A DNA stretch of 64,000 bases from Catajapyx aquilonaris (taxonomy: Eukaryota), in assembly GCA_000934665.2 (NCBI GenBank), contig JYFJ02001507.1, positions 1-64,000 on the forward strand, read 5' to 3'. Within the stretch, counting starts at the first letter, position 1. Each line of letters starts with the position of its first letter. Under the pieces are notes generated by a model. That model searched no databases. It was not told the origin of the DNA and was given only the letters and a program-made list of their open reading frames with translations. Below are positions 2,338 through 55,810 of the stretch, one piece after another. Made by a program: the position numbers and the translations under genes.

Positions 2338-2407
<70 letters not shown>

Positions 2408-9357: not shown

Positions 9358-12300
9358 ATGTGGACGAGGACACTGCTTCTAGTGCGGCTCCTGCTCTTTT
9401 CATTGCTCCCTTGCCTGCTGCTGGCCCACCCTTCCATTGACCAGCTGCTGGACCTCTGGGAGCAATCCTCAGGGGTCAACAGCAGCAGCACGGTCAACCT
9501 CACCTGCTCTGTTGACCTACAGAGAGGTCGCCTCCTACAACAGGGCTGCAACGACACCTTCTGCCAGACATTACGAAAGGTATGTCACATAATGATCTAT
9601 GGTCAAACTTATTCTGGTATGTACTCATTAACAGTACCTCAGGGTCACTTTTTTGTAGAGTGGTTATTATAGTCCTCCGAAGACTAATTACTGATGAGAT
9701 AATGAGCTTCAGACACATCCAGACATGCAGGCGTCTCTCCTTGAAACCCGCGGGAGTTAGGCGATAGAAGTGTCATAGGCTGTATCTGTCACATACATCA
9801 CAACTTAATAACTTATTAATATAATATAAATAATGTAAATATATAAAATAAGCAATATGGGGTGGGCATACACTATTTAACCCACATATGCCCAAAAGGC
9901 CTATATCCTGCCAGGTAGGCTACTCGTAGGGAACATCCTGCGGATTAGACTACCTGTACATTTGTTCATTTAAAACATGGAAAAAAATGAAACAAAAAAA
10001 TTAGCTCATTAATTATTTCGGATTCTGAAGCCGAACATAAAGCGACCGGATTTTGTTTGAATATTTATTGAAACTGTGATTGGCAATGTGCGCAGTTTTT
10101 TTTTTTTTTGCAATCAATATTGTTTTGATTGCAATTTTTTTTAAGTATGAGATATGTACATATGGCTCGTTTTATCACCTAACTATATAGGTACGGAGCT
10201 GTCATGTTTTATTTGTCGCACTACGTGTGAAGCAGCTATGAGACCTTCACTTTACACTCCAACTAAAAATACTATTGCGAAACCCGTTTTACCGCAAACC
10301 TTGCCTTATTATTATTTGCGCGATTCAATCGATTGGAGATATCTCGAACTTGATCGATCAAGTACGAAAAATTTTCTTTTCCGGGTTTGAGGCACACCAG
10401 TTACACCTGTCAAGTAAGCTCCCAAAAAGTGGACAAAAAGAAACGAACAATTCCAATAGAAAAAGGGGCGATATGCATGACATGTAACGAGGCAATTACG
10501 CAATTGTTTTCAAGCTCATTTTCACGTGTAATCTCTAAACGGCTGTCACAAACTGCTGCGTGCAACAAGTGAAGATGCTTACACACACACAAGCTTCCGT
10601 ATTATCGGGTTATCGGCCCAACTTATCTCCTCATGTATCCTGAAAATGTAAGGATCCAAAGTACAGATCATACGTATTGAGAAATACACATGTGCAATAA
10701 AATTTTCGTTTAAAAAAGAAAGGAGTTTGCAATTTCCCCGCACTTGCAGTTAGAGGAAGTTGCTGGAGGCAACAATCTGTAACTCTTCACCTTTTTAAAG
10801 TAATTAATTGCAACAGTTTTTTTTCAATTAATTTTATTGCCACAGCTAACAGTACTGTGAATTGGCAGTGATTCAGAGCTTAAGGTGTAATCTAGTGATT
10901 CATAGAGATTACAGGTGTGTACACGCAACTTTTGCAATTAATTTCACAGCATTAGCTATGGGATTCCACGTAATCACTCGTACGCACTTTTCCTCAATAA
11001 AATTAGTAGGGAATATCCTGCTAGTTAGACTACATTTGTAGGGAATAATCGCGAGTTATACTCGCGTAAGGAATATCCTGCAGGTTATACTACGAGTTAG
11101 ACTACGGTACTTTTGTATGGAACATTCTGCGAGTTAGACTACTTTTGTATATGGAACATTCTGCGAGTTAGACTACTTTTGTTTGGACCATTCTGCGAGT
11201 TAGGCTACTTTTGTATATGGAACATTCTGCGAGTTAGACTACGTTTGTATGGAACATTCTGCGAGTTAGACTACTTTTGTATGGAACATTCTGCGAGTTA
11301 GACTACTTTTGTATGGAACATTCTGCGAGTTAGACTACTTTTGTATGGAACATTCTGCGAGTTAGACTACTTTTGTATGGAACATTCTGCGAGTTAGGCT
11401 ACATGTAGGGAAGATCCTGCAGGTTAGACTACTCTTGTAAGAAATATCCTGTGAGTTAGACTGCTGTTGTAGGGAATATCCTGGGAATTAGACTACTCTT
11501 GTAGGAAATTTCCTGCCAGTTAGACTACTTTTGTAGGGAACATCTGACTAGTTAGACTACTCTTGTAGGTAATATCCTGTGGGTTAGACTACTTTTAAGT
11601 TCAAAATAGATGACAAATTTTTATTCCAAGTGGGACACTTCAAAGTGCAGCTTCCAAAGTGCTTGTTGATTTTAATGTAATGACCTCCCCCTAAAATATT
11701 TAGGTCATTGCTGATACCGACCCAGCACATGATGCGGATGACCCCACCATCTGCCCCCAGTTAGTGGGCACACTTGTCCACCACCTGTGTCTGGTGTCGG
11801 CGACAGAGCATGTCCCATCAGACTGGACAGAACCTGGACAGGTCGTCAAGCCAACTGAGATTGAAGGTACTCAGTAAATTAATTAGAATTTTAGTGCAAG
11901 TAATTAATGTGATGTTGATTTTTGCAGTATGGGGATTTGGACTGCTGTTCGTGACCCTGATCAGCTTGTCCTCGGTCATGGGCGTGGCCTTCTTTCCCAT
12001 CATGAAGAAGGAAGCGTACAAACAAGTCATGAGGTTCTCAATTGGCCTAGCCGTGGGCTCTCTTTCCGCAACAGCTGTCTTCCACCTCATACCTCAGGTA
12101 ATTAACAATCTAACCGCAATGGCACGTGCGGTATGCCGGAAGCTGGGAAAAAAAATAATTGAACTAACCGCATGACACTAAAAAGTAACCACAAATATTA
12201 CGCTCTACTGACCACACAAGGTTGTACATACTCCAACGCTTCACAACAAATGACCGGTAGTTACATTATTTAAATACCCAATCAACATAGTGGAACACTG

Positions 12301-13660
12301 TTGTTGTCAGTAATCTTTTACGACTAGTAATTGAACCTGGTACACAAACACTGCCGGTTTATAGCAGGGTGCAATAAACCAATTTTTCATCCTTGAATAA
12401 CTCTATTTTTATCGGCAGGTCAACCAGGCAATTGCATGGTTAACCGTCACAAAAATATTAATCGCTTTTCTCTATTCGCAAGGCCTTCCACCTTCCGAAG
12501 CAGGATCCAACCCATCGCTACCTCAACACTGCCGCGTTCACATGGCTCAGTTGCTGGCTCGTCTTCTTTCTCGAGTGTGCGATGAAGATCACAGTCCGAA
12601 GCAACAGACAAGTGAGACGATACAGAGCATAATAATAAATCATGAATATATCATAATTGGTCCAACAGGTGGTCGTACGAAAGAGGGAATCGGATGAATC
12701 ACTGCCAGTCAAGAACGGAAATGTGTCTGCCAACAATGAATCCTGCTACGAATCACAGCTAATGCTCGCTGCCTTCGACTCAAAGGTATGGGCTACATAC
12801 AAGTGCTGGCGAACCCAATAACGTTGCCTTATATTTCACAGGAAACTACAAAAGCAAACGGCATTGCAGGTGTTCATCACAATCATCACGGACATCTCGG
12901 TGCGGACAATCCAGAGGAACATGGCATCCGAGCCGTGGCCTGGATGGTCATCTTCGGTGACGGCCTGCATAATTTCGTGGACGGGATGTCCATTGGAGCC
13001 GCATTCGGAGAGAGTATATCCACAGGAGTCGGGATGAGTTTGGCCATCATGTGTGAAGAATTTCCGCATGAGCTAGGTACATTTGGGTCTTGTATTTATC
13101 CTGACTTGTATTCATCCATGTTCTCATTGCAGGCGATTTTGCGATCCTGATCAAATCGGGAATGAGCGTACGTCAAGCCTTGTTCTTCAACTTCCTCTCC
13201 GCATGTTCATGCTATGCAGGACTGGTCGTGGGCGTACTCCTCGGAGAGCTTGAAGGCAGCGTGTACATATTCGCATTTGCTGCCGGACTTTTCCTGTACA
13301 TCAGCCTCGCAGATATGGTGAGTATACACTGGAAAAGTTCAAGCGATATACGACGATAGCACTATTACAATATGGTAATCAATCGATAATCTGCCTAATC
13401 AACTCCAAGGTTCAGGTGCACATGCAATAGCTCACTTGACAATGACCTTGGAAATTCATGCACCATTGACATAATATTCATGAGTCGCTTTTGTGTTTTG
13501 TCTCCAGGTTCCAGAACTCTTGTCGGATGTCCAGGAATCTTCTGCTCGTGGAGGTGCGGCTGGATTCCGTGTGTTTGCACTTCAAAATGCGGGAATACTC
13601 ACGGGAGTTCTCATCCTCTACGTCCTGGCACGTTTCCAGGACCGAATACGCTTCGATTGA
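9358..13660 (+). CDS. LIV-1 family ZIP metal transporter, SLC39A8/SLC39A14-like (paralog B)
   Basis: Exons 9358-9579, 11704-11866, 11928-12097, 12483-12611, 12669-12785, 12842-13076, 13133-13317, 13508-13660. Shows a signal peptide, CPQLV, VWGFG, His-rich loop [31 protein letters not shown] and FLYISLADM. The exon 1-2 link is the least certain. Confidence 0.9.
11005..11596. repeat. 32-bp minisatellite in intron 1 of ZIP paralog B
   Basis: Unit gagttagactacttttgtatggaacattctgc, homogeneous in the centre and diverged at the edges. Related units at about 9900-9955. Confidence 0.95.
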
Positions 13661-14258: not shown

Positions 14259-17200
14259 CTAAGCCTCGCCTGTTTTGATGATCTTGATGAGAGAAGACAC
14301 GTTTTGGTTCTTGATCGCTACCCTGCATGCGTTTATGACGTTGGTCTTGTGCTTTCCAACTGCGGGTGAGAGAAATGAGTGACAGATTCTCACGGTAATT
14401 AGCAAATGGGGAAATGAACACGCTCATTGTGTTACTGTACACATGACATGCAACACCACTTCCATTATAAAATTAGGAAAAATAATTACGGTGCATATCG
14501 GCTCGAGGTGGTAATGCTTTTTATCTGTTTAGATAATACGAAGTACATGACTCACCCCTAAGTCTCCCCGCCTTCTGTACAATCTGATTAATCTGCTTCA
14601 GACATCCAATCAAGTCTTGCTGATTGTTGCTGCTGATCTTGTAGCCGCTGATTAAGTCCTTGTTGATCTCGAACAGTTGGGTGTACCATTTACGCATGCT
14701 CTTCCTTTATTGAAACGTTAGAAGCGTAAACATTGAATAGTTCAACCGCAGACGAAACCTTATCTTACATGTCATCCAGCAAACGCGAATCTTCCGCTCG
14801 GACCACCAGGCTCCGGATAAGTCCGGAATTATCCGCCATCTCAGCAGTAAGTTTCTGCCGAACGCTCTGAAGGTCCCGCATCCTCTCCAGCAGCTCTTCT
14901 ATCTTCTGAGTCTCCTTGGGAAAACTAGCTTCCACCTGCAGCTCATCAATGTTGAGAAAAAGGGACAACGACTGGATGAGATCTCCTACGAGGTCCATGT
15001 CGTTACTGCCGATGGTCATTTGGCCACCGGTGTCCATGTTGAGACTCAGCTCTTCGTTTGTACGAAGGGAGAGGAAGGTCACGCTGAACCCGCCCTTCAC
15101 CTCCAAGTCGGACATCAGAAGGAAGTTTTGGTTGATCCACATCGATATCTGAAATAAGAGAATGCAATCATATAGTGGCAAATGTGCTCACAGAAGCGTA
15201 CTAACCCGTTGAACTCGCTCGTGAATTTGAAACTTGACGTATCCCTCCGTTTCCTGCGCTGGAGCCATGCATACTGCATACATGGAGAATCTCGGGAGCT
15301 GTCTTGTGAGCTCGAAGACATGAAAGTGCTGGCTCCCCTTATACCCGACTAATGCCTTAACGTGAAGGTCAACAGGGACGTCCTTGGGCGGAAAAATGGG
15401 GACGTTGAGGCTGCTGGACAACTGGGTCTCCTTCGGATGGACAACGTGACACTCCCCTTCAAATATGCCTTCAGCAAAAATCAGAATTGCTTTCAGCGCC
15501 GTGTCGTTTGTGGTCGACAGAGCAATTTCGACATGTGGCTGCAAATAAAGTCATTTAGTACGTGTAAACAGAAAGCTTACATACAACCAGATCTTACCCG
15601 CAAGTCCTCGCTACCCATGTTGATTGCCAGGCCAGTCTGCAATTGCGTCTGAGCCTGAAACAATCATTTCGCATGTGAAAATCATCGTCGTACTTTACAA
15701 TTTTCAGAAAGGTGAAGCGGTACTGACTGGAATTACTCCAACTCCTTGGTAATCAGCATCGTTGCCCTGTGACCTCAACTTGGCATTCTCCTCGTAGTTC
15801 TTAAGCTCCAAGAGTAGGTTCTGCTTCTTGTGGCTCAGGTCACGGATGGCCTCTTGCTCCAGACTGGACTCCATCATCCCTCGCCTCATTTCCTGCGAGC
15901 CCGGTTGGTATCCGCGAACTGACAAAAAATAAATCAGAACCTTTAGTCTAACTGTACGTCTTTAAAAAAAACAAAACAATGGGCTAACCTTCTCCTTCAA
16001 TGGAGCAGCAGATAAGCTCCATCTTCCCATTCAGCCTGTAGTCCGCTTCGGTGATTCCTGCTATTGCGTGAGGAAAGTTGTCCTTGAACACCACCTCTCC
16101 TGTCCGATCATTCCTGGCGTCCACCTTCCCGTTGCTCCAGCCTGTTATTAGCTCTTTCACACCATCACCGTCCAGGTCGAAACTGTGTATCGTCATAGCC
16201 TGGTTCTTTGACTGAAATTAATCCAAAAGCGACATGTTGCGATACAACTAACGAAGACTGCATAGCATTCAGCACGCACCTCCATAAAATATCTTGAAAT
16301 AAAAACCTTCATTTTCCGACCATTAGATGTATTTCAGTTTGCATTACAACTTATTCAAAATATTACCATTTACTTGCCAATCATCGGGTCTGTACCAAAT
16401 ATACATCAAGTGTAGGCACTTAATTCCTTTCATTACACAACGGCAGAGGGAAATATAATGGCTCACACCTTTACCTCGAATTACCCAAGAAGAGATTAAT
16501 GTGACGAAAATTAACGGATCAGAAACTGTTACGCAACAAAAGGTTGCAAAAATACTGCTTTCAATTGTCCACAGTAATACAAAAAGGTTCAGAAAAACAC
16601 TTAATGACACTGTTACATTTCTCATCATCACAAATTTCCGGAATAAACTGATTGCATGTTTTAAATTTACACCAGCATTACCATGATTAACATGCATTAG
16701 TGAAGCTCTCGCAATCAGCCGTGAAAGAAACAAATCCTGAGTAATAATCAAAACGTAGTTATTAATCCAATTACAGCTCTGACAAATTTTTTAAACTTCT
16801 TTGCATTGATCATTGCTTAATAGCCGAGGCCTGGCAATCAGACCTTCCCCTCGGGATGCCTCTCAACCAACATGGCTATAGCTTGACCTCCAGCAGCACA
16901 TGCGGTGATGAGAGCCAACTGCCCGTCCTCCCTGATGAGCCGGTTTGAAGCATGGCAAGTCAGCCTCACACCTGTCGCGGCGAAGGGATGCCCGATGCTC
17001 AGGGAGCCGCCCCAGAGGTTGAATTTGTCAAGCGGTGGTCTTCCAACCTTGGCCGGACGCTTCATGTACTCCTTACCAAACCAATCGGAATCCATTGCCT
17101 TCAAGTTAGCCAGGATCTGGCCTGCAAATGCCTCGTGGACTTCCCACACATCGATGTCGTTGACGGTGAGGCCGAGGCGATCCAGCAGTTTTCCTGTGGC

Positions 17201-20200
17201 ATATGCGGGTCCCAGCAGCAACTGATCCTTGGGATCTTGCGATACATACACAAAGTCTCGCAAGTATGACTTTGGACGCAATCCTAGCTCCTTTGCCCTC
17301 TCTTCTGTGGTGACGATGCAGGCGGAGGCACCATCAGTTAAGAACGATGCGTTGGCAGCCGTGATGGTGCCGTATGGCTTCACAAACGCAGGCCGCAGCT
17401 TCCCAAGCTGATCCATCGTTGAAACACGGATTCCGTTATCCTTTGTAACAGGCTGGTCTACTCCGGGTACTTTAAACGGCATGACATCAGACAGCCATCC
17501 CTTGTCTTGTGCCTGCTGGGCCAGCGTGTGTGACCGCAGGGCATATTCATCCTGCTCCTTGCGTGTCAGCTCAAACGCTGCGGCCAACCGATCTGCCGAG
17601 TGCCCCATGGTCTCTCCGGTGCTGAACTCCGCCACTGCTGGCAACTCTGGCATAAACGTCTTGGGCCGCAGTTGCGATATCAGCTGGAGCCGCTGCACCA
17701 TGCTCTTGGCTCTGTTAGCCCGCAACATCAGCGACCGCATCTGACGCGAGAAGCGAATGGGCACGTCCGACATGAACTCCACCCCGCCTGCAACACACAG
17801 GTCGTACGTCCCAGTAGCCAGCAGCCCCATCGAAGTGGTGATCGCCTGATTGGAACTAATGCAAGCCTGGGTCACCGTATGGGCTGGAGTGTGCTCGGAA
17901 AAACCAGCTCCAAGAGCAGCCTCACGACCTGCAACATAAGCCAACAGTCAGAATGCTTAAGATCTGTTTATCTCGCTTGTCATTTGCCCTGCATTACCCA
18001 CCGATATTGCTTGTCTTGACCTCCTGGATGACCGTCCCATACACGATGTAGTCCACCGACTCTTTGGGCAGGCCAGTCTTCTTGAGGAGGGCGATGAGCG
18101 ACTCCCTGGCCAGGTCGTGGGGCATGAGCCTGTTGTAGTCAGTCCCCGACTGCAGGAAGGGGGTTCGAACCCCATCGATGAACACCAGGTTCTTCGGCCC
18201 CTTCAACTTCGGGGCCTGTCTTGGGGGAGCTGCCAATCCAGGGGTGGTGGACAGGGACCTCACCCACACCCCGGTCGCCAAGGCGGGGAAGGAAAAGGAC
18301 TTGGACAGGCAGACGGAAGCCATCTTCGGATTGATTTTGATGATGTTTGATGACGATGGCTGCCCTTTTGGAATATTCGGTCGGAACAGGGAGGGCCGAA
18401 TCGCGCGTAGCAGTTCTGAACCGGAAACCTTACCGGAAATGTAGCTGTTGCACGACCGATTTATTTCGAACGAGAATTCGCTTTTTAAAAGGCAGGGTTG
18501 GGTATAATAAGGGTGCAGAATTTTTCGTAGCATGTACAATTGTCGGAACTGGTCGGTACACACCCCCCTGTACACTCGCACGGTCATTCATAGCACATTA
18601 CGCACGCAACTAATATAAATAGCGGCTACTTCATAATAGCGGCTACTCACAAGGGGGGTCACAGGGTACAGTACTTTTCAAATGTACAGTACACTGCAAA
18701 TAGTATGTACGGAATTTATAAAATAATGGCCACATTGTGTGCACAAATAATATTAATTGTACGGTTAATTTAAATTTGCACGTAACCAATAATTGCAATT
18801 ACAGTTTATTTAATTTTGGATTAATTGCGTTTAAATTAATTTTAATTATTTTAACATGCTAATTTATTTTCATTAATTATAGCATTATATTTTAATGCTA
18901 ATTAAGTTGAACTGGTTTACTTTAATTTGGATTAGTTGTGTTTAAATTCATTTAAATTATTTTAACGCAATCATTTATTTACATTAATTACAACATTTTG
19001 AATTATATTAATTGATTTAAGCTATTTTACTGTAATTTTTAATCATTTAGTTTAAATTTATTTTAATTATTTTAACATGCTAATTTATTCTCATTCATTA
19101 TATCACATTAATGCTAATTAATTTCAGCTTTTTTACTTTAATTTTTATGAAATGAATTGCATTTACTTTATTTTTAACTGATTATAGCACATTAATTTAA
19201 ATACACCTAATTACACCATTTGTGATTTTCATTATTTATAACATGTCATGAAGTTGATGATTATTATTATTGATAATGATAACATTTGAATTTCAATTAA
19301 TGATAGCATATTAATTTCAATTAATGATAGCATATTAATTTCAATTAATGATAGCATATTAATTTCAATCAAATAAAAACAACACGTGCACAAGTAATTC
19401 TAATCCAGTTATTATAGTATTTGATTAATCATTTAAATTATTTATAACAATTACTAATTACAGCATTTGTGATTTTTATTTTATTTGTAACATGTCATGA
19501 AGTTGATGATTATATTTATAGCATATTAATTTAAATTAATTGCAGCATATTAATTTAAATTAATTGTAGCATATTAATTTAAATTAATTATAGCATATTA
19601 ATTTAAATAAAATCAATGTAACAATTGTACAAGTAATTCTAATCAATTAGAGAATGTGATTTGTCATTTAAATTATTTATAACAATGTAAATTTGATTAA
19701 TTGCAGCTATTTTAACTAATTATTTATAATAATTTTAATGTGATTTTAATGACATGGCCATAGAGTAGGCCTAAAGCAAAAATCATGCATCACTTACAGT
19801 TAGAAGAGCAATAATTATTGATTGTGTCAATTAATGTAACTGCCTCAAATAAATAATGCACAAAATTCCCCTGATATAAATGCCTGATGGTGTCGAAGCA
19901 ATATTTTTACATGACCGTGTGCAATTGTTGCAGGCTTACCTTGATCCGCCACCACCTGGAAATCTTCTCGTAGACGCCCACAGTCCCGTTTGCCAGGGCG
20001 TAACCAAACCGTCCGCCTTCCATCGGGGTAAGGCCTGTCACAGCCTCGGTTTCAGTCAATTCGTTGACAATGTTGTCCTCCTTGAACACTCGTATGTTGA
20101 AATCCTCTGAGCCAACCACCAACTGCAAGGTTTTCGAATTAGTCTGGCGCCTTGTACGTCCAGGGCGACATATTACCTCGTTCTCTCCATCTCCATCAAA

Positions 20201-20890: not shown

Positions 20891-21335
20891 TTTCCAGCAA
20901 ATTGTCCAGAAAATTAATAATTCGAACACTTCGCACGAAAGTGGTTTCTCTCCTGTTTTGTTTACACGCTCCAGCTTCCAGGCTGCCTTACACCTATATG
21001 GTTTCTCTCCTATTTATACGTTCCAGCATGCATATAATCCACCCAATCATGATTCAGTATCCAGCAGTTTAAGCCAATCAGCGGTGTAATGAGGTACTAA
21101 AATGTAAATGGTTTCTCTCCAATATGCGTTTACACGTTCCAGTCTGCCCGAAAACTCAAATGGTTTCTCCCCTGTATGTTTACACGTTCCATAACGCGAG
21201 GAGTCAAACCAATCAGCATTCATTATCCAAGCGTTTAAGCCAATCAGTGCTTGGCATGTCCTACATGTTGGACAACATTTGGCAACGTTGCCAATTAATT
21301 CATTACAAAGTACTTGCGGTGTGTACGTGCCTGCC
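20891..21335. promoter_or_regulatory. Putative bidirectional promoter of BBS2 and MTG1 with duplicated CCAAT modules
   Basis: 445 bp between divergent ATGs. CCAAT at 21043, 21074, 21119, 21209, 21240. TGGTTTCTC motif at 20942, 20999, 21109, 21161. Confidence 0.6.
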
Positions 21336-23091
21336 ATGTGCTCAGCATGGAAAAATTTGGTCCAAATACCGAATAAGTTCACCCCAAAATTCACTGCCAA
21401 AATTCAGTGGTATCCAGGACACATGGACACAGGTATGTATGCAGTGTAATAAGCAAGTGTATGAAAGCAAAGTGTATGAAACATGGGCACATGCGTATGA
21501 AATGTATGAAATGTGTATGAAAGCAAGTGAAAACATGCGCATGAAATATATGAAAACACGTTATGAAACATATGGAAGGTATATGAACTGTATGAAAAGT
21601 GTGTATGTAACATGTATGAAGCAAGTGTATGAAAAGTATGAAACAAGTGTAAGAAGCATGTGTGAAGAGTATGCAACAAGTGTATTAATCATATTAACCA
21701 AAAGTACTAATCCCAATTATCCTGCAGGTATAAAGAAGATGCAGGCAAAGCTCAAGAGTGTGGACTGCATAGTTGAAGTGCATGATGCTCGAATATCCTT
21801 TTAAATATTCAATCATTATTTTTGGCTAAACAATCAGCAAGTACATGCGATTAGTCCTTAGCGATACGCACATACCATTCTCAGGCAGAAACAGGCGGTT
21901 CAAGCACCTTTTGACTGCTGCAAAGCCGCACGTCCTGCTGTTGAACAAGATGGATTTGACGGACCGCCGGATGATGGAGGATGTTAAGCAGACTATAATG
22001 AGCGAAGAAAGTGTGTCCGAAGTGATTTACACTAATTGTAAGAACCAGAAGTGCATAGGGCTCAAAAAGGTAATGTGCTGCACACACCGTGTGGTTGTAA
22101 TTGCAACGGTTCAATTTTACAGGTCGTGCCAACTGTAATAGATATGATACAAGCATCGGACAGGTACCACCGCAATGAGGTGAAGGAATACTGCCTGATG
22201 GTCATAGGAGTACCGAATGTCGGCAAGTCATCCTTCATTAACATCCTGCGGAGTACGCATCTTCGTAGAGGTTTGTTTCACTTTCATTGGAACCTGAGCA
22301 ATTTGTAAATTTTAAATACATTGCGATGAAAATTGAATGTGTTGTTTCCAGGAAAAGCGGCGCATGTCGGTGCAATCGCAGGGATTACCAGGAGCGTCCA
22401 GGAGAAGATCAAGATCAGCGAGGATCCTCCTATTTATCTGCTGGACACACCGGGAATATTGGATCCCTCGATTAAGAATTACGAAGCGGGCATGAAGCTG
22501 GCGCTGTGTGGTACGCATTAATTTCAATTGCTAGTAACTCACACGTCCATGTAAAGTACAGCAACCTCGCAGCTTATGCTAAGTACCGGTACCATAAACT
22601 GCAAACAAAACTCAGGGTATTACGATGTATTTTTATTTTGTTTCCACTAATTGTGGTTTTTATGCAAATCATATGTAATTTACCTTCAGCGAGTTTCCCA
22701 GACCATTTAATTGGAGAGGAGGCAATGAGCGATTACCTTCTGTACTACCTCAACAAGCATGAGAATTACAGGTAATTAATTGTGTCCATTACAGATGAAA
22801 CATGTCATTTATTTTTAGATAGTAACGAAGTGAATGTTTGGACCATTCGCTCTATTATTTTTTTGCAGGTATGTTGAACACTTGGGTTTGGAGGAACCGT
22901 CAGTCAATATACTGGAGGTTCTTGTGAAGTGTTGCCTGAAGAATAACATGACCATCAAACGGCGTGATCCACGTGGCGAAGTTGCGAGAAGGCCCAACCT
23001 TGTAGCAGCAGCATCGCTTTTTATACGCGGCTTTCGAGAAGGCATGTATGGGCCGATGTTGCTGGACTCAGAAATCGTCCAGAAGAGTTAA
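21336..23091 (+). CDS. MTG1: Mitochondrial ribosome-associated GTPase 1 (YlqF/RbgA family)
   Basis: Exons 21336-21432, 21728-21792, 21872-22069, 22123-22270, 22352-22510, 22690-22771, 22869-23091. Shows WYPGHM, EVHDARIPFSGRN, NKMD (G4), GVPNVGKSS (G1) and LLDTPGI (G3), in the circularly permuted order. Confidence 0.93.
21433..21690. repeat. Degenerate (gtatgaa)-type simple repeat in MTG1 intron 1
   Basis: Recurrent gtatgaaa / gcaagtgtatgaa units. Confidence 0.8.
21793..21871 (+). other. U12-type (minor spliceosome) AT-AC intron
   Basis: 5' site ATATCCTTT, branch-like TCCTTAGC about 10 nt before the terminal AC. Removal joins HDAR|IPFSGRN in frame. Confidence 0.9.
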
Positions 23092-23135
23092 TAAAACATA
23101 GTTCACAAGTCCTGTTTTATGCTTCACCACACTGA

Positions 23136-26100
23136 TTAGAGCCAATCTTGCTTGATCATGTCGGCACCTTTCTCTGCAATCATGGTCACGGCAGCCATTA
23201 TGTTCGCACTGGGTATCGAAGGTATTACAGATGCATCGATAACACGCAACCCATTAACACCACGCACTCGTAATCTCGGGTCGAGAACTGCCATTGCATC
23301 ACTGTCATTCCCCATTTTGGCTGTACCGCAAAAATGAAACTCTGTCAACGTGTATTCGCGCAAGTGGCACTCCCAATATTCATCAGTCGTCATATCGAAT
23401 TGACGACATGCCGGAAATGGGATTGGCCACAGCGTCGAATTAACAATTTTGAATGAATCGGACTGGCCAAACTTAAGTGCTGTCTTGGCTGCCTCGATCA
23501 GTACTTTAATGTCATCTGGTTCACTCAGGTAATTGGCATGGAACACCGGGTGGCTCTCTGGGTTGCGATCTTTTAATGTCATGTACCCGCTACTCTTTGG
23601 CCTCATTATTGTCGCTAGTACCATCCAAGCATCACGATTAACCAACGGAGCATACACACTTTTCCACAATTCGTTTGAGATCCGATGCGCACGTCGTAAC
23701 CCCCCATAATCCGCCGCAACCGACCCGGCCGCAAATGTCAGTTGCACATCCGGAGAATCTTCCTGATCCGCGTACTTAGTCCGCACAAACGCCTGACCTT
23801 CAACCCCTCCCGGTATTGTAAAAGGACCTTCCCGTGTCATACCCCACAGCAGCAAATCTCCCGCATTGTACTTATTGACATTCCACGACACAGGACTGCT
23901 GATTGCAAATGTTATCCCTCCGACGCTTATGTGATCTTGCAAGTTACGTCCGACACCTTGAAGACTTGCAAGTACCGGTATTTCTAGTTCATTCAATGCT
24001 TGTGCCGGACCGATACCTGAGAGCATCAGCAACTTCGGCGATGCAAGTGCTCCTGCGCTCAGTATAACCTCACGTCGTGCCCTTGCTTCAGACATAGCCA
24101 AACCTCGTCTGAAACGCACACCAACAGCTCGTCCCCTTCTATCAAACACAATCCGATGCACCATTGCTTTTAAAGCCACATGTAAATTCCGTCTGTGTCT
24201 TACGGGCTGTAAGAAAGCCCGGTTATGACTGCACCGTTCGCCATTTCGGACTGTCAATTGCGGCTTCATAACCCCAGTCTGCCGCTCGCCGTTAACATCC
24301 ACTTCGGGATACCCCAACTCAATTCCAGCGTCCAGGAAGAGGCGGGAGAGCGGTGTCTCCCATTTGTTCTGCTGCACTGGAAGATATCCGCCTGTTCCGT
24401 GATGCCGTCTGTCTTGAGCGTACCTGCAACAGACAATCAGCCATTGACCGACCATCGTATGATATGCGAGAGAGTATACCTTTTATCCCGGTTGTCCTCC
24501 GATTTCCTAAAGTACTGCAGCACATCTTCGTAGCTCCATCCGACGTTCCCGACCGCTGCCCATCCGTCGTAGTCTCTCCGGTTTCCTCGTATGTACTGCA
24601 TGTAGTTTAACAGCGAGCTTCCACCGAGCCCCTTTCCTTGTGTCCATCCGCATCGCCCGGCAGTCATGCCTCGGCAGAAGGATGGGTCGGCTTCTGGGAG
24701 ATATCCCCAGTCGTACTGTGGGGTGCCGACCAGCAACGAAGGCAGGGCAGGCACCTGTCCGATAATTGATTCCTCTCCGCCTGCTTCTAACAGTAGGACA
24801 GTCCAGTTGGACACTTCGCTCAGGCGATTAGCTACGACACATCCTGCAGTACCTGCGATGACATTTTCTAATTAGTACAGTGCACCATCATTTGTCCAAC
24901 ACATATTGAAAAATTAAGCATTATTCTCACCTACACATGTCTAATTAGTAAATTGCAACATTTTTCCCCCCCAAAATGCAAGAAGTGCTGGACAATTAAC
25001 CATTGTTTTCGTTCACATACATGTCTAATTATAGTCAATTGCACCCAAAAAAAACTTACAAATTATGGAAAATTTAAGTGTTTTTTTTTCAGCCACACAT
25101 CAACTTTTTATCCGAAAAATGATGGAAAATTAAGCATGATTTTTCTCACCTACGCTTGCTAATTAGTAAATTGTAATCCATGTTTTTTTTATTTACCAAA
25201 GCAGCGTTTTGTTCACCGGCGTGACTAATTAGTAAGTTGCAACATTTTTAGCACTATTTTTCCAATAATGCTGGAAAATTGAGCATAATAATTGTTCACT
25301 CCTAAACATGTCTAATTATAGCAAATTCCAATGTATTTTTTCAAAAACGCTGGAAAATTATGCGTAATTAATTGTTCACATCTACACTTATCTTGATCTT
25401 AAAATTATCTTAATAATAATTGCAGGTGTAAATTGCAACATTTTTTTTTCTCCAAAATACAAGAAGTGCTGGAAAATGAAATAATTTTTCACCTACACAT
25501 GTCTAATTAGTAAACTGCAACTTTTTTTCCGGAAATGCTGGAAAATTAAGTGCAATTGTTCACACCTTCATATGTCTAATTAGTAAATTGCAGCATTTAA
25601 TTTTTCAAACTGCTGGAAAATTAAGCTTAATTTTTCTCAACATGCATGTCTAATTAGATTGCAACATTTTTTTCTTCTCCTAAACACAAAAAAGTGATGG
25701 TAAATTAAACTAAATTTTTCCCACCTTCAGTATACAGTACTTTAAAATTTAAATGGAACGTCCATTGTTCTGAGATGCACCTTTCTTCACCTGTGAAAAA
25801 ATTGCAATAATCTTGCAATCTTATCTTTTGGCAAAAAAAAAAACTATTGACCTTCACTTTTTTTTTGGTTTGCATTGTTTCAGCAAAACATAAGAGCATA
25901 TTGTATGCATATTGGGTATTAATAAAGAGAATTCTTTCTGGCGAACTAATTTCCACTCGTTATACCTGCATTACCGGTATAATGAATGTAAGGTATGCCA
26001 AGTTCCTTTTTGTTGTAGGTATAACCGGTCATGAACATGACCTGTACCGTCACTTTCTCTTCCAGTACTTGAATTTATCGGAATTATTATTTCAGTCCCC

Positions 26101-46672: not shown

Positions 46673-47809
46673 TCAGTGCTGCGATCCCAAAGCATAGTTG
46701 AGAAGAGTCATGAACATAAATCCAACGAACATGAACAACACCTTGACCATCCGGCTCTTCCCATCAACAAACTCTTCAGGGATCAGCTCCATAAAAGTTA
46801 CGTACACGAACACACCTGCCGCAACACCTTGCAGCAACCCGGACACCAACATACCCGTGGCTCCAGGTGCACTTCCCAAACCGATACCAATCAACCCTCC
46901 GATCGGTATGGTAACAGTGAAGGCCAACACATACCTGCAACCTTTCCACACACCCATCCCCAGCTTAGAGGTGCTTACACCCATCGCTAGAGCAACCAGC
47001 GCTTCATGTAGCAGCACAGCCAGGAAGAGACGTAGTGCACGAGTCTCCTCACGCTGAAGTCCTAGTGCAACACCTTCCAGCAGTGAATGGACACTCACAG
47101 CAAGTAACAACAAGACAAACTGAAGGCCGGTCGTGTGGCCCAGAAGGTCTGCCACTTGCGAGTGGCTGTGATGGTGTTTCTGAGGCTGGAAGATCGGGCT
47201 GGGTGGGATGGCCGCATTCCCATTTAGATGGCCAGCTTGAAAAAGCAATCATTAGTTAGTTAATGTACGTGGAAAAGAGATTGACAATGCATTACCTGGA
47301 ACTGTGCTTCCAGTCTTCACCGCACAGCAATCTCCATCCTCAACAATGGGCAGCTCTTCCTCCACATCCTCCTCCTCCTCCAGCAGCTCCTCCTTCTCCT
47401 CGTCCACCCCTTCCCCTTTCCTCCTCATCAAGTCCACCTCCACCCTCTCGCCTTCCCTCCGCCTCCCTTCCTTGCATCCCAACACTCCTTGCTCCAGGGC
47501 CAGTATGGCAAAGAAGCCCAGGACCAAAGACATCTCCGCCAAGGGCATGTCCGCCGCGAAGCTTCCACCAAATGCGGTAACAGCCTCCTCGAACTTGTGC
47601 CTGGAGAAAGGAAGTAGGCCCAAGAAGCAGACGCCCACGAATACTCCAGCTGCCACGCAATTGCAGAAGGAGAGGACGCGGGAGGCAAAGTCACTAAGTT
47701 GGGAGGACCCACGGCGGTGCACCAGGATCACCGGTATCACCCCACAGAGGGTTGTCACCGAGAATATTGTCACCAAGCATGATAACTGAAGCGCAACGAT
47801 GTTCATCAT
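46673..47809 (-). CDS. ZIP subfamily II zinc transporter (SLC39A1/2/3-like)
   Basis: Exons 47296-47809 and 46673-47235. Shows NCVAAGVFVGVCFLGLLP, PLAE, HHHSHS loop, SVHSLLEGVALG, LLHEALVA and GVAAGVFVYVTFMEL. Upstream splice acceptor at 47840. Confidence 0.93.
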
Positions 47810-48224
47810 GAGTAGATGCTTCCAGCAATGGTGCTAAGCCTGGAAAAGATTACAATGTAAATTTTCCAGCACAATACTTGGATGTTACCATATTTCAAGC
47901 ACGATTCCCTCAATTTTAATTACTGTCCACTGCATTCATGTACACATTCAATGAGCACATTTCAGATACTTGTCAATGTATTAACACATGTATTAATCCC
48001 GATTAATCCTGCCTTTCCTATCAGTGACACCTCAAAGATTATGAAGTCACACTTGATACATTTGAACTTTGTATTTAGAAAGCTATAAAGGTGTAATACC
48101 TAGGCACTTACATATTTAGTTCATGAGCTAGTTTTTCATTTGCTCATGAAATAATATTTTAAAAAATTAAACAAAAAATAATTCGGCCACATCTGGGTTA
48201 ACACGTACTAAGCTGTATTATTAA

Positions 48225-48484
48225 CCCTGGAACCATGCCGTGGGGTCTTTTTGGACCCCAAGAAACTAAAATGGATTAAAATTATACTTACAATGAACTT
48301 TTGCCTTTTTTTTTTTTACTGTATATAACAAGAAGTGCATGTTTATTTTGAATTAGCGATCATTTTAGGCATCGTTCAAAGAATGATTGTATATAGTCAA
48401 TACATTGAAAAGTATTATATAAAAATTAATAAAAATTAAAATATGGATGGGGTCCGAAAAGACCCCCACGGCACGGTTCCAGGG
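48225..48484. mobile_element. piggyBac-type MITE
   Basis: TTAA flanks at 48221-48224 and 48485-48488, CCCT...AGGG termini and about 36-bp imperfect TIRs. Confidence 0.85.
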
Positions 48485-49389
48485 TTAACATTTACTGTAC
48501 TAACATGTATTGTAAGCATATACTAACATATGTAAAGTAAGCAAGTACTAACATGTTTCATTAACATGTATTAACACATGTATTAACAGTGTAAGTCCCA
48601 CCTGTTTCATATATAATAAGGTGCGTAAGGACAAGGCGGCAACAGTCTGCAGAAACATTGCGGAAACCTGGTTCGCTCTAGAAGCGACACAACTTGTCCT
48701 CACCCTTCCAAACGTGTTGCAAAATGTATTCCAAGCAATTGAAGGCACAACAATGCACAGGTGCGTACACAGCAAGTGAACATATGTCCCAACTTTATAT
48801 TATTCACACCTTTCCCCTGGGTCTGGCCAATGTTTTGGCCGCATCCAGTTCCAACTTATTGGCAAAATAATTAGGTGACGTCTGGACGTGACAAGTACTT
48901 GAATATTTTATAAGGTCTCACCATATTGATTTGAAATTTAGATGAATCCGGAAGACTGGAAGGGTGAAAGTCCCTGTCGCATTTTTTCTCCATTTTTTTT
49001 TTGGTTAACTAACTGAACCCCAGCTGTAATTCAAACGATAGTATACTCAACTCCCACGTAATTAAAATATGCTGTAATTACAATCTTCATACAGCTAATT
49101 AAGATTAAAAATTAAAATGAAAAAAAAAAACATTTTGTTTGCATCGCGTAGTTGGAAAATTACGATAGTATCGATGTGGCACTACTAGGAGCCTCGCATG
49201 AAAAAAAAGCAGAAAAAGTCAGGTGAGATTTAATTCAATTTATTTAAATGAATTTAGCTGCAATTGCACAATGTAACTGCAATTGAAATGTTCATCATGA
49301 AGTATGCTTTGAGCTGAAATTAAATTCTGAACATGCCTTTTAGTATTTGAATCACATGCTTCATTCCTCCGAAAGGGCTATCATAGCTT

Positions 49390-49962
49390 TAGATGTACTG
49401 TACATATGTAAAAACAACACATATGTACTGCATAGAGTATGTACAGTTATAACCAACCTATGTACTACATAGAGTATGTACACAACCGTACATATGCACA
49501 TGAACATATATTTATACATGTAAATAGAGTGATGTGTACATAAGTTGTACATATGTAAATAGACAGTTGTGCATATGTAATAGAGTATGTACATAGGTCT
49601 ATAGACATAGTTGTACATAGGTCTATAGACATCTATAGTCTATAGTACATAATTATGTAATATAGTATGTACATAGTTGTACATATGTAATATAGTATGT
49701 ACATAGTTGTACATATGTAATATAGTATGTACATAGTTGTACATATGTAATATAGTATGTACATAGTTGTACATATGTAATATAGTATGTACATAGTTGT
49801 ACATATGTAAAAGAGTATGTACATAGTTGTACATATGTAAAAGAGTATGTACATAGTTGTACATATGTAATATACTATGTACATAGTTGTACATATGTAA
49901 AAGAGTATGTACATAGTTGTACATATGTAAAAGAGTATGTACATAGTTGTACATATGTAAAT
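49390..49962. repeat. 30-bp minisatellite
   Basis: acatatgtaatatagtatgtacatagttgt in about 10 near-perfect copies (49655-49960) plus degenerate copies. Confidence 0.95.
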
Positions 49963-49978
49963 ACAATACTTGTATGTA

Positions 49979-50406
49979 CAGTGCCGTGCACAATAGCATA
50001 TAACAAGTGTAAACAACGACTTTGGCGTTACCTGGCAACTGGGCGTGTTCGGACATCGGCATGTGGAGAGTGCTTAGCGCTCTTTCTGTCGTTGCCACTG
50101 TTTACAGGTAGCGATTGATGATAACTCCATCATCGTGGGAATAAGACAGTGACGATAGTGTGATAATAACGAAGCGCCTTCTCAAAATAATATCCCCTCA
50201 GCCCGCTTATTCCGATGCCATGCATTGGTAAGCATGCACACACCCTTTGCTATAGGTCGCCCAGCATCAATCGCTACCTGTAAACAGTGGCAACGACAGA
50301 AAGAACGCTAAGCACTCTCCATATGCCGATGTCCAAACACGCCCAGTTGCCAGGTAACGCCAAAGTCGTTGTTTACACTTGTTATATGCTATTGTGCACG
50401 GCACTG
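49979..50406. mobile_element. Tc1/mariner-type MITE, 428 bp, 142-bp TIRs
   Basis: TA|CAGTG...CACTG|TA ends. Arms 49979-50120 and 50265-50406 differ at only 3 positions around a 144-bp spacer. Confidence 0.85.
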
Positions 50407-50501
50407 TACTATTGACTTGTAGAAAAAATTTGGCATTACGCTTATCTAGTGAACTCATGTTTTTCCTTCAGGTTGGTAATCCGGCAACGTGCAGTTAAAT
50501 A

Positions 50502-51234
50502 ATGGTGGTACGTACGCTTCCGTACTGTACGGAGATAAATATTTTGAAACCTAGACCTTGTGTCCATTTCTAGAAAATAAGCCTTCAGATTAAGGCGAAT
50601 GTTGAGAATGTGACTGACCTTCGACCGGAAGATAATGACTTTCGGTGGTACCTGAAGGTATGTGCAGCTGCTCTCGTTACGTTGTTGTAATCTGTTCATG
50701 GTATCCGTATTGGGATTTCAGCTGCGATGCCTGAACTGTGGCGAAGTACCAGACAAATGGCAGTATGTGAGTGGTACTGAATCAGCCCCGTTGAAGGGAG
50801 GGAGAGGTTCGGCCAATTTGGTCAGCAAGTGCAGGCTATGCTCCAGGGAAAATTCAATCGGTATAGTTATCTTTGAACAATTTTAATTTGGGTGTAACGT
50901 CTGTTCTGCATCTTCAGACATCATCAAGGATAGTATCAAGCCTTACTCTTCCGAGAGCCAAGGAAGATTCAAGACTGTCGTGACTTTTGACTGCCGAGGA
51001 ATGGAACCCACTGACTTTTCTCCAAGAGTACGCTGCTCTGATACATGAAACAGAACTGTGTGTTTATGATAAACTTTCTATTGCTAGAACGGTTGGTTTG
51101 CCAAGGGTGAGGAAACGAGCACCAGCTTCAGTAACGTCGACTTGTCAGAGAAGGAGTGGGCAGACTTCGACGAGCAGGCGAAACTTCCAACTGTGATCGA
51201 CGAACTGGAGCATCAGTTTGTCAAGGAAAAATAA
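50502..51234 (+). CDS. CZIB: CXXC motif containing zinc binding protein (C1orf123/UPF0587/DUF866)
   Basis: Exons 50502-50507, 50574-50657, 50722-50860, 50918-51027, 51088-51234. Shows MVKISLQIKANVENVT, FRWYLKLRCLNCGE, LKGGRGSANLVSKCRLC and FDCRGMEP. Confidence 0.93.
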
Positions 51235-51308
51235 TGAAAAGAACCCAACGGATCCGAAATAAAGCTGCAGATTCATATTCAAACCATGTATTATGAAGGC
51301 ACATGTTT

Positions 51309-53999
51309 TCAGGACATCGCAAGAGCCTTTTGGGCCATTAAAATCGCTCCCTCCTTGGTCACATTCCCTCCGATGAATCCAACCGAGTGGACAAACACAC
51401 ATCCTGGTATCCCGGACACTTTCGTCAACTCCTCGTCCCTCAAGCCCCGCCAGGATTCCGGTAGAAATTTCCTGAAAAATCCACAGATAATATTTTAAAA
51501 ATTACTCGCTGTAAAATAACGTCTACTCTTGTAAGATGTAACTGGTTGCCATGTAACCCCATTGCCATTTCAATCTATTGTGATGGTAGCATGTTGTCAA
51601 TTGCCATGAAAACAATTTGCAATGTACTCCTATTTCCATTGCAATCTGTTGCCATGTAACCTCATTGCCATGGTAACATGTCACGTAATCCTGTTGCCAT
51701 GGACAGACAAACTTTCCCTTATATACTTGTACATGTGAGATACTGTACCTGCACTCGAAGGATGTGTCAGAGAGAGGCACGCACTGCACCCTCCACTTCC
51801 CACTCTGGTCGCCAAATATGACGTAGACCTGGTCTTTCCCTACATCCAGCTCTTTTTCCAGGGTGAAAAGGTGTTCCTTCCAAGGGCAGGAGGTTTCCAG
51901 GAAGACTATTTGTCCGCCCGAGTCGACGTCATATCTCTTCTCGATTGCAGACTTCACCTTCTCGCGGGCGGGAAGCCAGACCTTGCTGTAGTAATGGACT
52001 CGGTCTGTGAATTCGGATCCGACCAGTTTCATGGCCTTGTTGAATGCCGCTGTCTCGTCCGGATTCTGTTCGGTCCAAGGCGGATTGAGGTGGCCAACTC
52101 GGGCGCTCAAGGTGGTCGTTACTTTGTATCTGCAACAAGCATAATTTTTAAGCTCAAAGTGGACATCTTTCTAAGAGCGTGTGTACCTAGGATTTCCGTC
52201 GTGTGTGGATATCCCGTTGTCAATAGCATCAATTTCCTCCATCAAGTTTTCGTACACTTTATCGTATATTTTCTCCAGCACAGGGTCGTCCGCTGGCATC
52301 TTCAGTAGTTGTGAAATCACGTGCTTCCCAAAATGAGCGTAGATCAATCCAGCGCTGCTAAGCTTCGTTACCCAGTACTTCCCTTCCTTCAGTGTGCTCA
52401 TCGAATGGTTAAAACCTCTGCAATGATAATTACCAATAATCTTAACAGTCCGATAACAAGCTCAGTCAGAAGCGAACCTCTGGTGATGATCAAATCGTTT
52501 CTTCTCAGCGTCAAACACCCCTCCGACGTCCACTACGATTGTGCACGTGTCCAGTTTGCTTTGGTCCCTCGTTCTGCGAAATAAACACACCCAATATTAA
52601 GAAATGCCTATATAATAATAAAGACAATTATTCCACCTGATTATCTCAGCATCTTTGTACTCCGGCAGCAGCTTGAGCATGAAGCAGGCGAGGACCTCAT
52701 CGCAATGAAACACTCCATTATGAGTCCCAATCGTCAAGCCCTTGCTCCTCTTCGGTTCAGGACTTTCCGCCATCATTCTAATCAAACCTGCATGGTAATT
52801 AAAACGCCAGTTTTCATTAATAATCCCTAGTTGCTTATTTTAAAACAGTTAATGATCACCAAGCTGCTTATTTATAAGCAGTTAATGACACGAGTGTGCT
52901 TATTTTATAGCAGCTAATGATTACTATGCTGCTTATTTTACAGCAGTTAATGATCCCTTAGCTGCTTATTTATAAGCAGTTAATGACATGAGTGTGCTTA
53001 TTTTATAGCAGCTAATGATCACGATGCTGCTTATTTTACAGCAGTTAATGATCACTATGCTGCTTATTTTACAGCAGTTCATGATCACTTAGCTGCTTAT
53101 TTATAAGCAGTTAATGACACGAGTGTGCTTATTTTATAGCAGCTAATGATCACCATGCTGCTTATTTTATAGCAGCTAATGACACGAGTGTGCTTATTTT
53201 ATAGCAGCTAATGATTACTATGCTGCTTATTTTACAGCAGTTAATTATCACTTAGCTGCTTATTTTACAGCAGTTAATTATCACTTAGCTGCTTATTTTA
53301 CAGCAGTTAATTATCACTTAGCTGCTTATTTATAAGCAGTTAATGACATGAGTGTGCTTATTTTATAGCAGCTAATGATCACTATGCTGCTTATTTTATA
53401 GCAGCTAGTGACATGAGTGTGCTTATTTTATAGCCGCTAATGATCACTAAGCTGCTTATTTTATAGCAGTTTGAGCAGAATGTGCTTATTTTATAGCAGT
53501 TTGAGCCTAATGTGCTTATTTTATAGGAGCTAATGATCCAAGTCACTAAGGTGCTTATTTTATGGCATGATCATTAAGCGGCTTATTTTATAGCAGTTAA
53601 TGAGACTAAGTGGCTTATTTTTAAAGCAGTTAATTTTCAGTATATTCGCTTTTCCTATTTTCCTATGAATAGTGTCACATCTTTATAATATTAAAGGTGT
53701 GTTAACCTCTCTGACGTGTAACGTACAGTTAATTGTAATTGTGCAGATAAACCCACACTGATTTGCATAGAGTTAAGTACCGGTACTGTTGATTATTACC
53801 CAATAAGTTTTGTAATTATTACGGGTAATGTACACATGATAATAACGCCGTGTAATTAGCGGAACTTACACCTGAAGTGTTGCTGGCTTCCTCCCCTAAC
53901 TCCGGACCAGTTCTGCTTGCTCGAAATCCCGATATATCCAGCAAATAACTCACTAATTAATCGCACCTCATTAATAATCCTCCCGAAACGAAGTGCCAT
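51309..53999 (-). CDS. MYG1: MYG1 exonuclease
   Basis: Exons 53870-53999, 52637-52787, 52478-52573, 52187-52417, 51749-52129, 51309-51471. Shows [44 protein letters not shown] and WRGLRD. Confidence 0.94.
52828..53635. repeat. Approximately 30-31-bp minisatellite in MYG1 intron 1
   Basis: gctgcttattttatagcagctaatgatcact-type units with variant subunits. Confidence 0.95.
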
Positions 54000-55810
54000 G
54001 AGCGGCGTCCGGCAAACATGGCAACCACGCACATCGATACTAACCAGATTCCCCTTTTTTTTACTTTATAAGTATTACACTTCCATAACTTACATATCAT
54101 ATATAAAGCGCCGAAAATTCATACTTGTCTGTTTATTAATTAAAAAATTTGCAATGGCTGTCACTCTGCATGTGTGAAAACAAGCAGCTTACAAGCGGTG
54201 TATGTAACCGTTATTTTTCAACACAGTAGCAGCTTACTTGTCCGCAACAAATCGCACCGACAAGTGCTATAACCGTTACTTTTCTATTAAGTGCGGATAT
54301 ATCAGTTGGCGACATTAGTCTGTCGTTGCAACGTTGCCACATTCCCCAGTCAATTTTTTTTGTGCAGTCGGCCCGCAGGGTTGTCAAATGGAGCGAAGTA
54401 TCGACACCTGCTGCTACCGCCACACTTCTTCTTTTTTTTCCCCCTTCTCTTCTTTCTCCGGCATTTTGTGTGTGCGTCTCTCTCCTGTGCAGAGTCGCCC
54501 CGCATCTCTTTGCCGTACAGAGAGACCACAGCAGGAAGAAGAAGAAGAATCGGCCGGTTCGTATTGCTGCTGCGAGTATGAGCCATTTCAGGGTCATTTC
54601 GTGGGGAGGGTTGTACTGTGAGAGAATAAGCCTAGGTCGGATCGAATGAGGAGGCGGAGGGAGGGAGGGTGACAAGAGCCGGTGGGTGGGGGGTGGGATG
54701 GAATAAAAATCGAACACCACATTGCAACATTATGCACTGTGTACGCGCTTACCTAGTGTACGCCACTTCTATGTACGCATCTCACCTTATGTGGATGGCC
54801 AAAAAAGCCCCAGTTAATTTATTGCTGTGATATATATATATTTTTTGGGGCTCCTAGTAGCAGTCTCTGTACATTCATGTTCACTGGCTGATTTTTTTAA
54901 AAAAAGGAAACAACTATTTTGGTTTTCAAGATAAGGCGGCTAGAATATGCGAGAGGGAATGCGGATGACATTTTGTTGACTAGTTTTGTTTGCAGTAGAC
55001 CTATGCAAGGTTTTGGGACATTAGGATAGTTATAATATGAAGGAAGGCCTAATAGGTTTACAACGTCTCCAACAGGAATGAACATGTCTCTCAGGAACGC
55101 AAATTGAAGGGTGGCGATGCCAGAGGATATTTTGTAGGAATGAGCGTTGTTGGGTTTTTAAAAAAAGATCCTTTGCAGATGTACTGTATAAAGAATTCAC
55201 TTTTATTTTTGAAAAGAGAAAAGTATCCTATGATATCCAGCTCCTTTCTGATTAGGAAAACTGGCTGTCAAATTTCTTCCTGATCATAACTCACACTATG
55301 TATACCATGTGTATAACACTTGACATGCAGCTGTTTGCGTCACTTATAATGTATATTGCAATACGGCAGCACGTAGGAATTATTTTAACAGCTGACGGTA
55401 ACTGTTGAAGTCCACAACTACACCAGTGAGTGCTACTTGTGGCAAACAGAGCCTTTCAAACAACATAAAACTTTTATTGTAATCGTAACATTTTCCAATC
55501 AAGTTTATTGATTGTTCAAGTACTACATGGCGCAAAATGATGGAGGCTATTTTTCACTGCAACCAAATGAAACCTTGTCTCCTGCTTTTTGATCATTGAA
55601 ATACTGTTGTTGATCCGAAAATTAATGTGACTTCCCAACTTGTCATGCTATCTCATTTTATTGCCGTAATCATTTTGTTTGTTCGGTGTTAAGTGTACTT
55701 TGCTTGTATATCAAGGCTGAAGCCTTTCATAGTTTCATTATTCGTCGACGCCACAACCTTTTCCAGAGCCATTGTAAGTCAGGTGAGGCTGAATCCTCAT
55801 TTGCCGGGAA

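Follow-up and report, generated by a model that had tools for sequence, protein, structure and literature searches.

A foldback element between a ZIP transporter gene and CZIB of Catajapyx aquilonaris: probably a young Tc1/mariner-type MITE

Here we analyze a 428-bp foldback element at positions 49979-50406 of a 64,000-nucleotide stretch of Catajapyx aquilonaris DNA (contig JYFJ02001507.1, positions 1 to 64,000; hereafter the window), located between a ZIP zinc transporter gene on the minus strand and CZIB on the plus strand. The explanation that we favour, with somewhat more confidence than doubt, is that a young non-autonomous Tc1/mariner-type MITE inserted into the CZIB 5'UTR intron, that both genes keep their older promoters, and that the element is spliced out and tolerated. 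A sequence-only reading of the same DNA had taken the element to be a mirror-image promoter and first exon for both genes. Our results leave this proposal unsupported without refuting it, since its donor and its MRE core are found at chance level, its symmetry is a by-product of the terminal inverted repeats (TIRs), and equal or better candidates exist outside the element. The genes and the parts of the element are as follows.

46673-47809, minus strand: ZIP zinc transporter (PF02535), two coding exons, about 358 aa
49977-49978, no strand: left TA, putative target-site duplication
49979-50406, no strand: MITE-like foldback element CAGTG...CACTG, 428 bp, recognized by inverted repeat and fold
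49979-50120, plus strand: left arm, 142-bp TIR
50121-50264, no strand: 144-bp unique spacer of the element, without TATA, Inr or DRE match and without a long ORF
50235-50241, plus strand: single MRE core TGCACAC, at chance level
50265-50406, minus strand: right arm, 142-bp TIR, three transitions relative to the left arm
50407-50408, no strand: right TA, putative target-site duplication
50502-51234, plus strand: CZIB (PF05907) coding region, five exons, about 160 aa, start MVKISLQ

This stretch of arthropod DNA is dense in genes, and its introns are short. The ZIP gene at 46673-47809 is a putative member of the ZIP1/2/3 subtype. Two further ZIP genes, which we take to be ZIP8/14-like, lie in tandem at 1285-4273 and at about 11700-13660 with matching intron positions, which brings the number of ZIP transporter genes in the window to three. 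For CZIB, a coding exon further upstream was considered and rejected, as the ATG at 50502 yields MVKISLQ, as in the N-termini of homologues. MYG1 lies on the minus strand near CZIB, and the two genes are convergent (51235-51470): the last MYG1 exon ends near the CZIB stop codon, and the 3' ends may overlap. The likely first coding exon of MYG1, placed by eye at 53870-54001, encodes an N-terminal extension resembling a mitochondrial targeting peptide. MTG1 and a GMC oxidoreductase gene are likewise convergent (23090-23140). MTG1 also shares a divergent promoter with BBS2 (20900-21346), in which there are forkhead cores, three CCAAT boxes, a unit repeated four times and, at about 21280-21293, an X-box-like palindrome. 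A BBS2 intron of 3.7 kb contains HADHB on the same strand (16212-19939), and the single-exon part of HADHB matches named insect proteins at up to 76-77%, as would fit an early-branching hexapod. As to other repeats, a SINE-like sequence is present in two inverted copies that are 85% alike (2028-2295 and 5197-5465), and a weak tRNA-like Rfam match at 2605-2677 is separate from it. All three AGATGGCGC words of the window, which we take to be CTCF-like, lie within 760 bp (26549, 26867 and 27305) of the first GMC intron, surrounded by nested inverted repeats.

The 428-bp length of the foldback element, its TA/CAGTG ends and its 142-bp arms with three mismatches had all been given in the sequence-only reading and were confirmed here. 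The mismatches fall at 50050/50335, 50063/50322 and 50080/50305, which corresponds to an arm divergence of 2.1%. The arms make up two thirds of the element and have a GC content of 50%. The element contains 24 CpG in 428 bp, and no other GC- and CpG-rich block in the interval between the two genes is as large. Its predicted fold has a z-score of -32.6, and none of 100 shuffled sequences was equally stable. The 64-kb window contains one copy. The inverted repeat, the TA-CAG ends and the acceptors of both 5'UTRs described below exceed chance. TACAG occurs at 0.13% of window positions, and it is unlikely that an inverted repeat ends on TACAG by chance.

From this observed anatomy we infer both the origin and the age of the element, which is probably a young Tc1/mariner-type MITE. 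The earlier assignment to the MITEs is borne out by the TA flanks, the CAGT ends, the long near-identical arms and the absence of coding capacity. TIRs, TA on both sides, CAGT-type termini and a short, non-coding body with only short stop-to-stop frames are all present. Furthermore, TACAGTA, the expected excision remnant of a CAG-ended element, was observed 30 times in the window as compared to 11.7 expected. The element would be young because its arms are only 2.1% apart, unless gene conversion homogenises them.

Tc1/mariner elements are reported to target TA and to give rise to MITEs of 80-500 bp (PMC2874221), and the Tc1-like Thm1 has TA/CAGTT ends (PMC4683633). With the Tc1/mariner-derived MITEs of these two accounts the element shares the size class, TIRs, TA flanks, CAGT ends and lack of a transposase frame; it differs in that its arms occupy two thirds of its length and are GC-rich (50%). 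With Sleeping Beauty-type IR/DR elements as described in PMC5224488 it has long TIRs and TA/CAGT ends in common, whereas no internal direct repeat of at least 7 bp is found within one arm; 7-8-mers recur only across the arms, where motifs are inverted. Thus, it is not IR/DR-like. Pattern scans with the element ends gave no match for 21 nt in metagenomes and none for 17 nt in viral contigs, and a both-ends pattern matched two loci, both of them unrelated larger palindromes sharing only the 11-nt pattern. In the metagenome contig stretch L001:1-1618 a bacterial-looking gene is duplicated, imperfectly and in inverted orientation, over the whole length, probably as an amplification or read artefact. 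An Rfam search returned no match within the element.

To assess splice sites, position matrices were built from 54 of 59 introns placed by eye, the remaining five being dropped as they had no clear GT or AG; among the 54 training introns the translation check was limited to those of CZIB and ZIP. The sites concerned are the following.

47840-47857, minus strand: ZIP 5'UTR acceptor, AG at 47840, 9.9 bits
50026-50034, minus strand: mirror copy of the donor-like site, GT at 50031
50090-50107, plus strand: inward-facing acceptor-like site in the left arm, AG at 50107, 7.4 bits, mirrored at 50278 on the minus strand
50351-50359, plus strand: outward-facing donor-like site CAG/GTAACG, GT at 50354, 6.15 bits
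50454-50471, plus strand: CZIB 5'UTR acceptor, AG at 50471, 12.5 bits, 65 bp outside the element

The CZIB acceptor and the orphan ZIP acceptor were located where they had been claimed, and both score above chance: only 7 of 7179 AG sites are as good as the former and 71 of 7179 as good as the latter. Because both score this high, CZIB and ZIP probably each have a non-coding first exon. Strong orphan acceptors lie upstream of 3 of the 11 start codons of the window, the third belonging to the ZIP8/14-like gene at 1.3 kb, so that 5'UTR introns are ordinary here. Spliced-leader trans-splicing was rejected as the cause of the orphan acceptors, as no acceptor above 4.9 bits lies within 100 bp of 8 of the 11 start codons, whose positions were assigned by eye.

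The outward-facing donors CAG/GTAACG are indeed present in both arms, at 50354 and 50031, but they are of medium strength and of a frequency expected by chance rather than strong, as had been stated. In a leave-one-out comparison 36 of the 54 real donors equal or exceed 6.15 bits, as do 316 of the 7531 GT sites, and a donor as good was found in 265 of 900 tiles of 142 bp and in 509 of 2000 shuffled arms. The arm donor agrees with the consensus at 7 of 9 positions, which 14 of the 54 real donors reach, and, like 19 of these 54, it lacks G at +5. It is usable, not exceptional. Since an inverted repeat copies any site automatically, its mirror copy does not count as a second observation. Within the interval the arm donor ranks ninth on the plus strand, where eight donors score at least as well (seven of them outside the element), and sixth on the minus strand behind 48703, 48809, 50243 (in the spacer), 48921 and 48111, four of which lie outside. 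It was still outscored after the CZIB and ZIP introns had been removed from the training set. The donors of the element are therefore not the best partners for the acceptors of both genes.

Candidates for host first exons, together with two further features of the interval, were found to the left of the element.

48221-48488, no strand: second small foldback element with TTAA/CCCT ends (piggyBac-like MITE), arms of about 40 bp, in the presumed ZIP 5'UTR intron
48698-49016, minus strand: candidate ZIP first exons, with TATAAAA at 48912 and donor 48809, Inr-like word at 49016 and donor 48921, and donor 48703
49166-49228, plus strand: candidate CZIB first exon and promoter, with a DRE-like 13-mer at 49166-49178, CpG o/e 1.41 and donor 49223
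49538-49960, no strand: AT-rich, CpG-poor minisatellite, 30-bp unit, 10.2 copies at 49654-49960, reaching the left end of the element

The best plus-strand donor of the interval, CAG/GTGAGA with its GT at 49223, scores 9.1 bits, a value reached by 31 of 7531 sites. About 45 bp before it lies the DRE-like 13-mer, whose site differs at one base from the DRE consensus TATCGATA. A second copy of the 13-mer is present in the MYG1 promoter at 54030-54042, in the same sense and 30-40 bp upstream of the MYG1 start. Among random stretches, 7 of 600 matched the promoters of the window equally well; the match of the 13-mer was noticed post hoc. The CpG o/e of the 49166-49228 patch is comparable to that of several other promoter stretches of the window, and the patch at 49.13-49.22 kb is small (5 CpG in 93 bp). 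On the minus strand, TATAAAA at 48912 has a CA about 29 nt downstream and is followed by donor 48809 with 7.3 bits; it is a weak candidate, as 9 of the 115 TATAWAW sites of the window pass the same TATA plus CA test. The Inr-like TCAGTT at 49016 precedes donor 48921 (6.5 bits), and donor 48703 reaches 7.7 bits. A model for a host promoter at 49.0-49.2 kb may be seen in the divergent gene pairs of Drosophila with BEAF-32/DREF sites, in which CGATA or DRE-like words lie between divergent starts and to which 32% of fly genes are reported to belong (PMC4132727).

Once the element is removed, its flanks consist of the CpG-poor minisatellite, with 2 CpG in 749 bp, on one side and of 65 bp from the end of an intron on the other. 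As these flanks look intron-internal, the CZIB acceptor requires a donor further left. As both genes are ancient and both acceptors lie outside the element, the donors should moreover predate it, as the acceptors presumably do. That a second MITE is found at 48221-48488 suggests that the interval tolerates insertions.

The preferred course of events would thus begin with the insertion of the MITE at a TA within the CZIB 5'UTR intron, 65 bp before the acceptor. The older promoters and non-coding first exons of both genes would lie in the 48.6-49.25 kb region, the best CZIB candidate ending at donor 49223. In the CZIB pre-mRNA the arms would then pair into a 142-bp duplex that hides the cryptic acceptor at 50107 and the donor at 50354, which could otherwise enclose a 246-nt cryptic exon, and it is because the hairpin would hide the element's own cryptic splice sites that the insertion may be tolerated and spliced out. 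In these calculations the arm donor had a predicted unpaired probability of 0.0 when the RNA reads through the element and of 0.5 when transcription starts in the spacer, with a progressive release for starts right of about 50045 (0.22, up to 0.5 in the spacer), and the predicted accessibility of the CZIB acceptor region was the same with and without the hairpin. As the arm donor is masked in read-through RNA, its use would point to transcription that starts within the element. The scores and this predicted masking were observed; the transcription start sites and the neutrality of the insertion are what we infer. Against the preferred explanation speak the CpG richness of the element, the strict X-box and two forkhead cores in each arm (see below), the 7/9 match of the donor and the normal size of the 118-nt intron that it would form.

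An unlikely reading, though one with an appreciable chance, is that the element serves as an alternative first exon for CZIB alone, probably in a tissue-restricted manner. Transcription would start in the inner left arm or the spacer and use donor 50354, and the copy on the ZIP side would be silent or spliced to nearer cryptic acceptors. The donor is usable, its 118-nt intron to the CZIB acceptor is of typical size for the window, and it is predicted to be free for starts right of about 50045. A short uORF in the arm terminates ahead of the CZIB ATG, and Tc1/mariner promoters are reported to sit in the 5' end between TIR and ATG (PMC6446368). However, the spacer has no core-promoter match, and chance supplies an equally good donor in the 265 of 900 tiles mentioned above.

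It is improbable that the element provides a promoter and first exon for both genes, be it by divergent starts in the spacer or by promoters in the arms that fire inward and exit via the donor of the far arm. The donor, the X-box and the forkhead cores are symmetric in both arms, and each gene has its orphan acceptor, but such symmetry is automatic in an inverted repeat. The ZIP intron of 2.2 kb would have to skip minus-strand acceptors of 7.9-9.7 bits at 49314, 49277, 49258 and 48647, and ATGs in the arm would burden ZIP with an out-of-frame uORF of 58 codons spanning its start codon. Furthermore, both genes are old, unlike the young element. A precedent is the LTR9/ERV1 element at human DSCR4/DSCR8, where one transposon between divergent genes is proposed as the source of promoter and first exons for the two (PMC11007075). 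LTR9, however, is a retroviral LTR with reported promoter assays, whereas here a DNA-transposon foldback is known from its sequence and the symmetry would lead to near-identical leaders. Domesticated transposase genes that borrow bidirectional host promoters, as reported in PMC2777200 and PMC13548663, represent the reverse case.

A zinc link between the two genes had been part of the same proposal. The MRE core TGCACAC is present in the spacer as described (at 50235), but its significance did not hold up: with 36 MRE cores in the window, the probability of at least one in 428 bp is 0.21, and the 2.6-kb interval contains one core as compared to 1.5 expected, a number that does not exceed chance, whereas that of an MTF-1-regulated promoter would. 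Zinc co-regulation via the MRE was therefore rejected as chance. Human CZIB is reported to bind one structural zinc via two CxxC motifs with the copper chaperone CCS as its partner (PMC6160046) and has been linked to oxidative phosphorylation (PMC6166629); neither of the two abstracts gives it a role in zinc homeostasis, and co-regulation of ZIP and CZIB by zinc thus finds no support. In a case of MTF-1 acting on a ZIP gene, that of Zip10, the effect is repression via an MRE downstream of the start (PMC3124522), which speaks against the reading of the element as a promoter for both genes.

Promoter-type motifs are present in the arms.

50346-50358, plus strand: strict RFX X-box match GTTGCCAGGTAAC, overlapping the arm donor and mirrored at 50027-50039
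50009-50105, no strand: two forkhead-type cores (GTAAACA/TGTTTAC) in the left arm at 50009 and 50099, mirrored at 50280 and 50370

The GTAAACA/TGTTTAC words are here assumed to be forkhead-type cores. RFX together with a forkhead partner forms a ciliary-gene module. No TATA, Inr or DRE match was found in the element, and each arm has a TCT-like word. The site at 50346-50358, about 145 bp upstream of the CZIB ATG in the right arm, agrees in full with the strict X-box consensus RTNRCC N1-3 RGYAAC of RFX target promoters (PMC2375033). About 0.002 such matches are expected per arm, and 4 of the 7 strand-hits of the window lie inside the element, as do 4 of its 18 forkhead cores, with only one other pair of cores within 142 bp. 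Tissue-specific promoter or enhancer activity of the element via the X-box and forkhead cores is therefore possible, and a transposon could use RFX and forkhead factors for its germline expression.

On this basis the element may lie outside any mRNA and act as an RFX/forkhead enhancer or proximal element, through which one gene or both could gain expression in ciliated cells or male germ cells; we assign this a low probability. The X-box and forkhead motifs were noticed after the fact, and in Drosophila an X-box upstream of an ATG is reported not to be predictive without conservation (PMC2375033). Moreover, two of the three strict matches outside the element (1812-1825 and 51664) lie in what appears to be another repeat, and words shared between the arms and other promoters of the window are at chance level (137 of 600), as are those of the spacer (264 of 600). 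The regions 1790-1870 and 51530-51730 are intronic; in each, GTTGCCATG-type words recur and a similar tail follows. These may be members of a small repeat family by which X-box-like sites are spread.

A crossed variant of the mirror-image promoter, which we likewise consider to have little chance, combines these motifs with the splice sites. The MITE would have arisen from two copies of the promoter-bearing end of its parent, and its RFX/forkhead sites would start transcription inward, past the point up to which the hairpin masks the donor, with exit via the donor of the opposite arm, so that in ciliated cells or male germ cells ZIP and CZIB would acquire new leaders that are nearly identical. 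Owing to the overlap of X-box and donor, a single word of 13 bp would be both factor site and splice site. Inward-firing arms are a more natural geometry than divergent starts in the spacer, since Tc1/mariner promoters lie in the 5' end and the spacer has no core-promoter match. The 'blurry' promoters of Tc1/mariner elements resemble this arrangement in that promoter activity is possible in the 5' end of the element, whereas those of Bari1, Bari3 and Hsmar1 are reported to be AT-rich (65-71% AT) and to drive the transposase, and the terms 'outward' and 'bidirectional' are absent from the main text (PMC6446368). If the crossed arrangement were true, alternation of the two overlapping transcripts would be more likely than their joint expression.

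That the element is no transposon at all is very improbable. In that case a host promoter together with exon 1 and the start of the intron would have undergone a single inverted duplication, or the structure would be an artefact of assembly or amplification. The single copy in 64 kb, the lack of a relative in the viral and metagenome collections scanned and the promoter-like CpG content would fit, but the duplication boundary falls exactly on TA/CAGTG, the arms differ at three sites, and unique sequence continues on both sides.

A search of the open-access literature, at the level of listings, returned no MITE whose two TIRs each supply a first exon to divergent host genes. Overall, the element can most probably be regarded as a young MITE of ordinary kind that lies in an untranslated intron, and it illustrates how an inverted repeat can make chance motifs look designed. 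If both arm donors proved to be used, it would show clearly how a single insertion can rewire two neighbouring genes at once via the symmetry of its TIRs.
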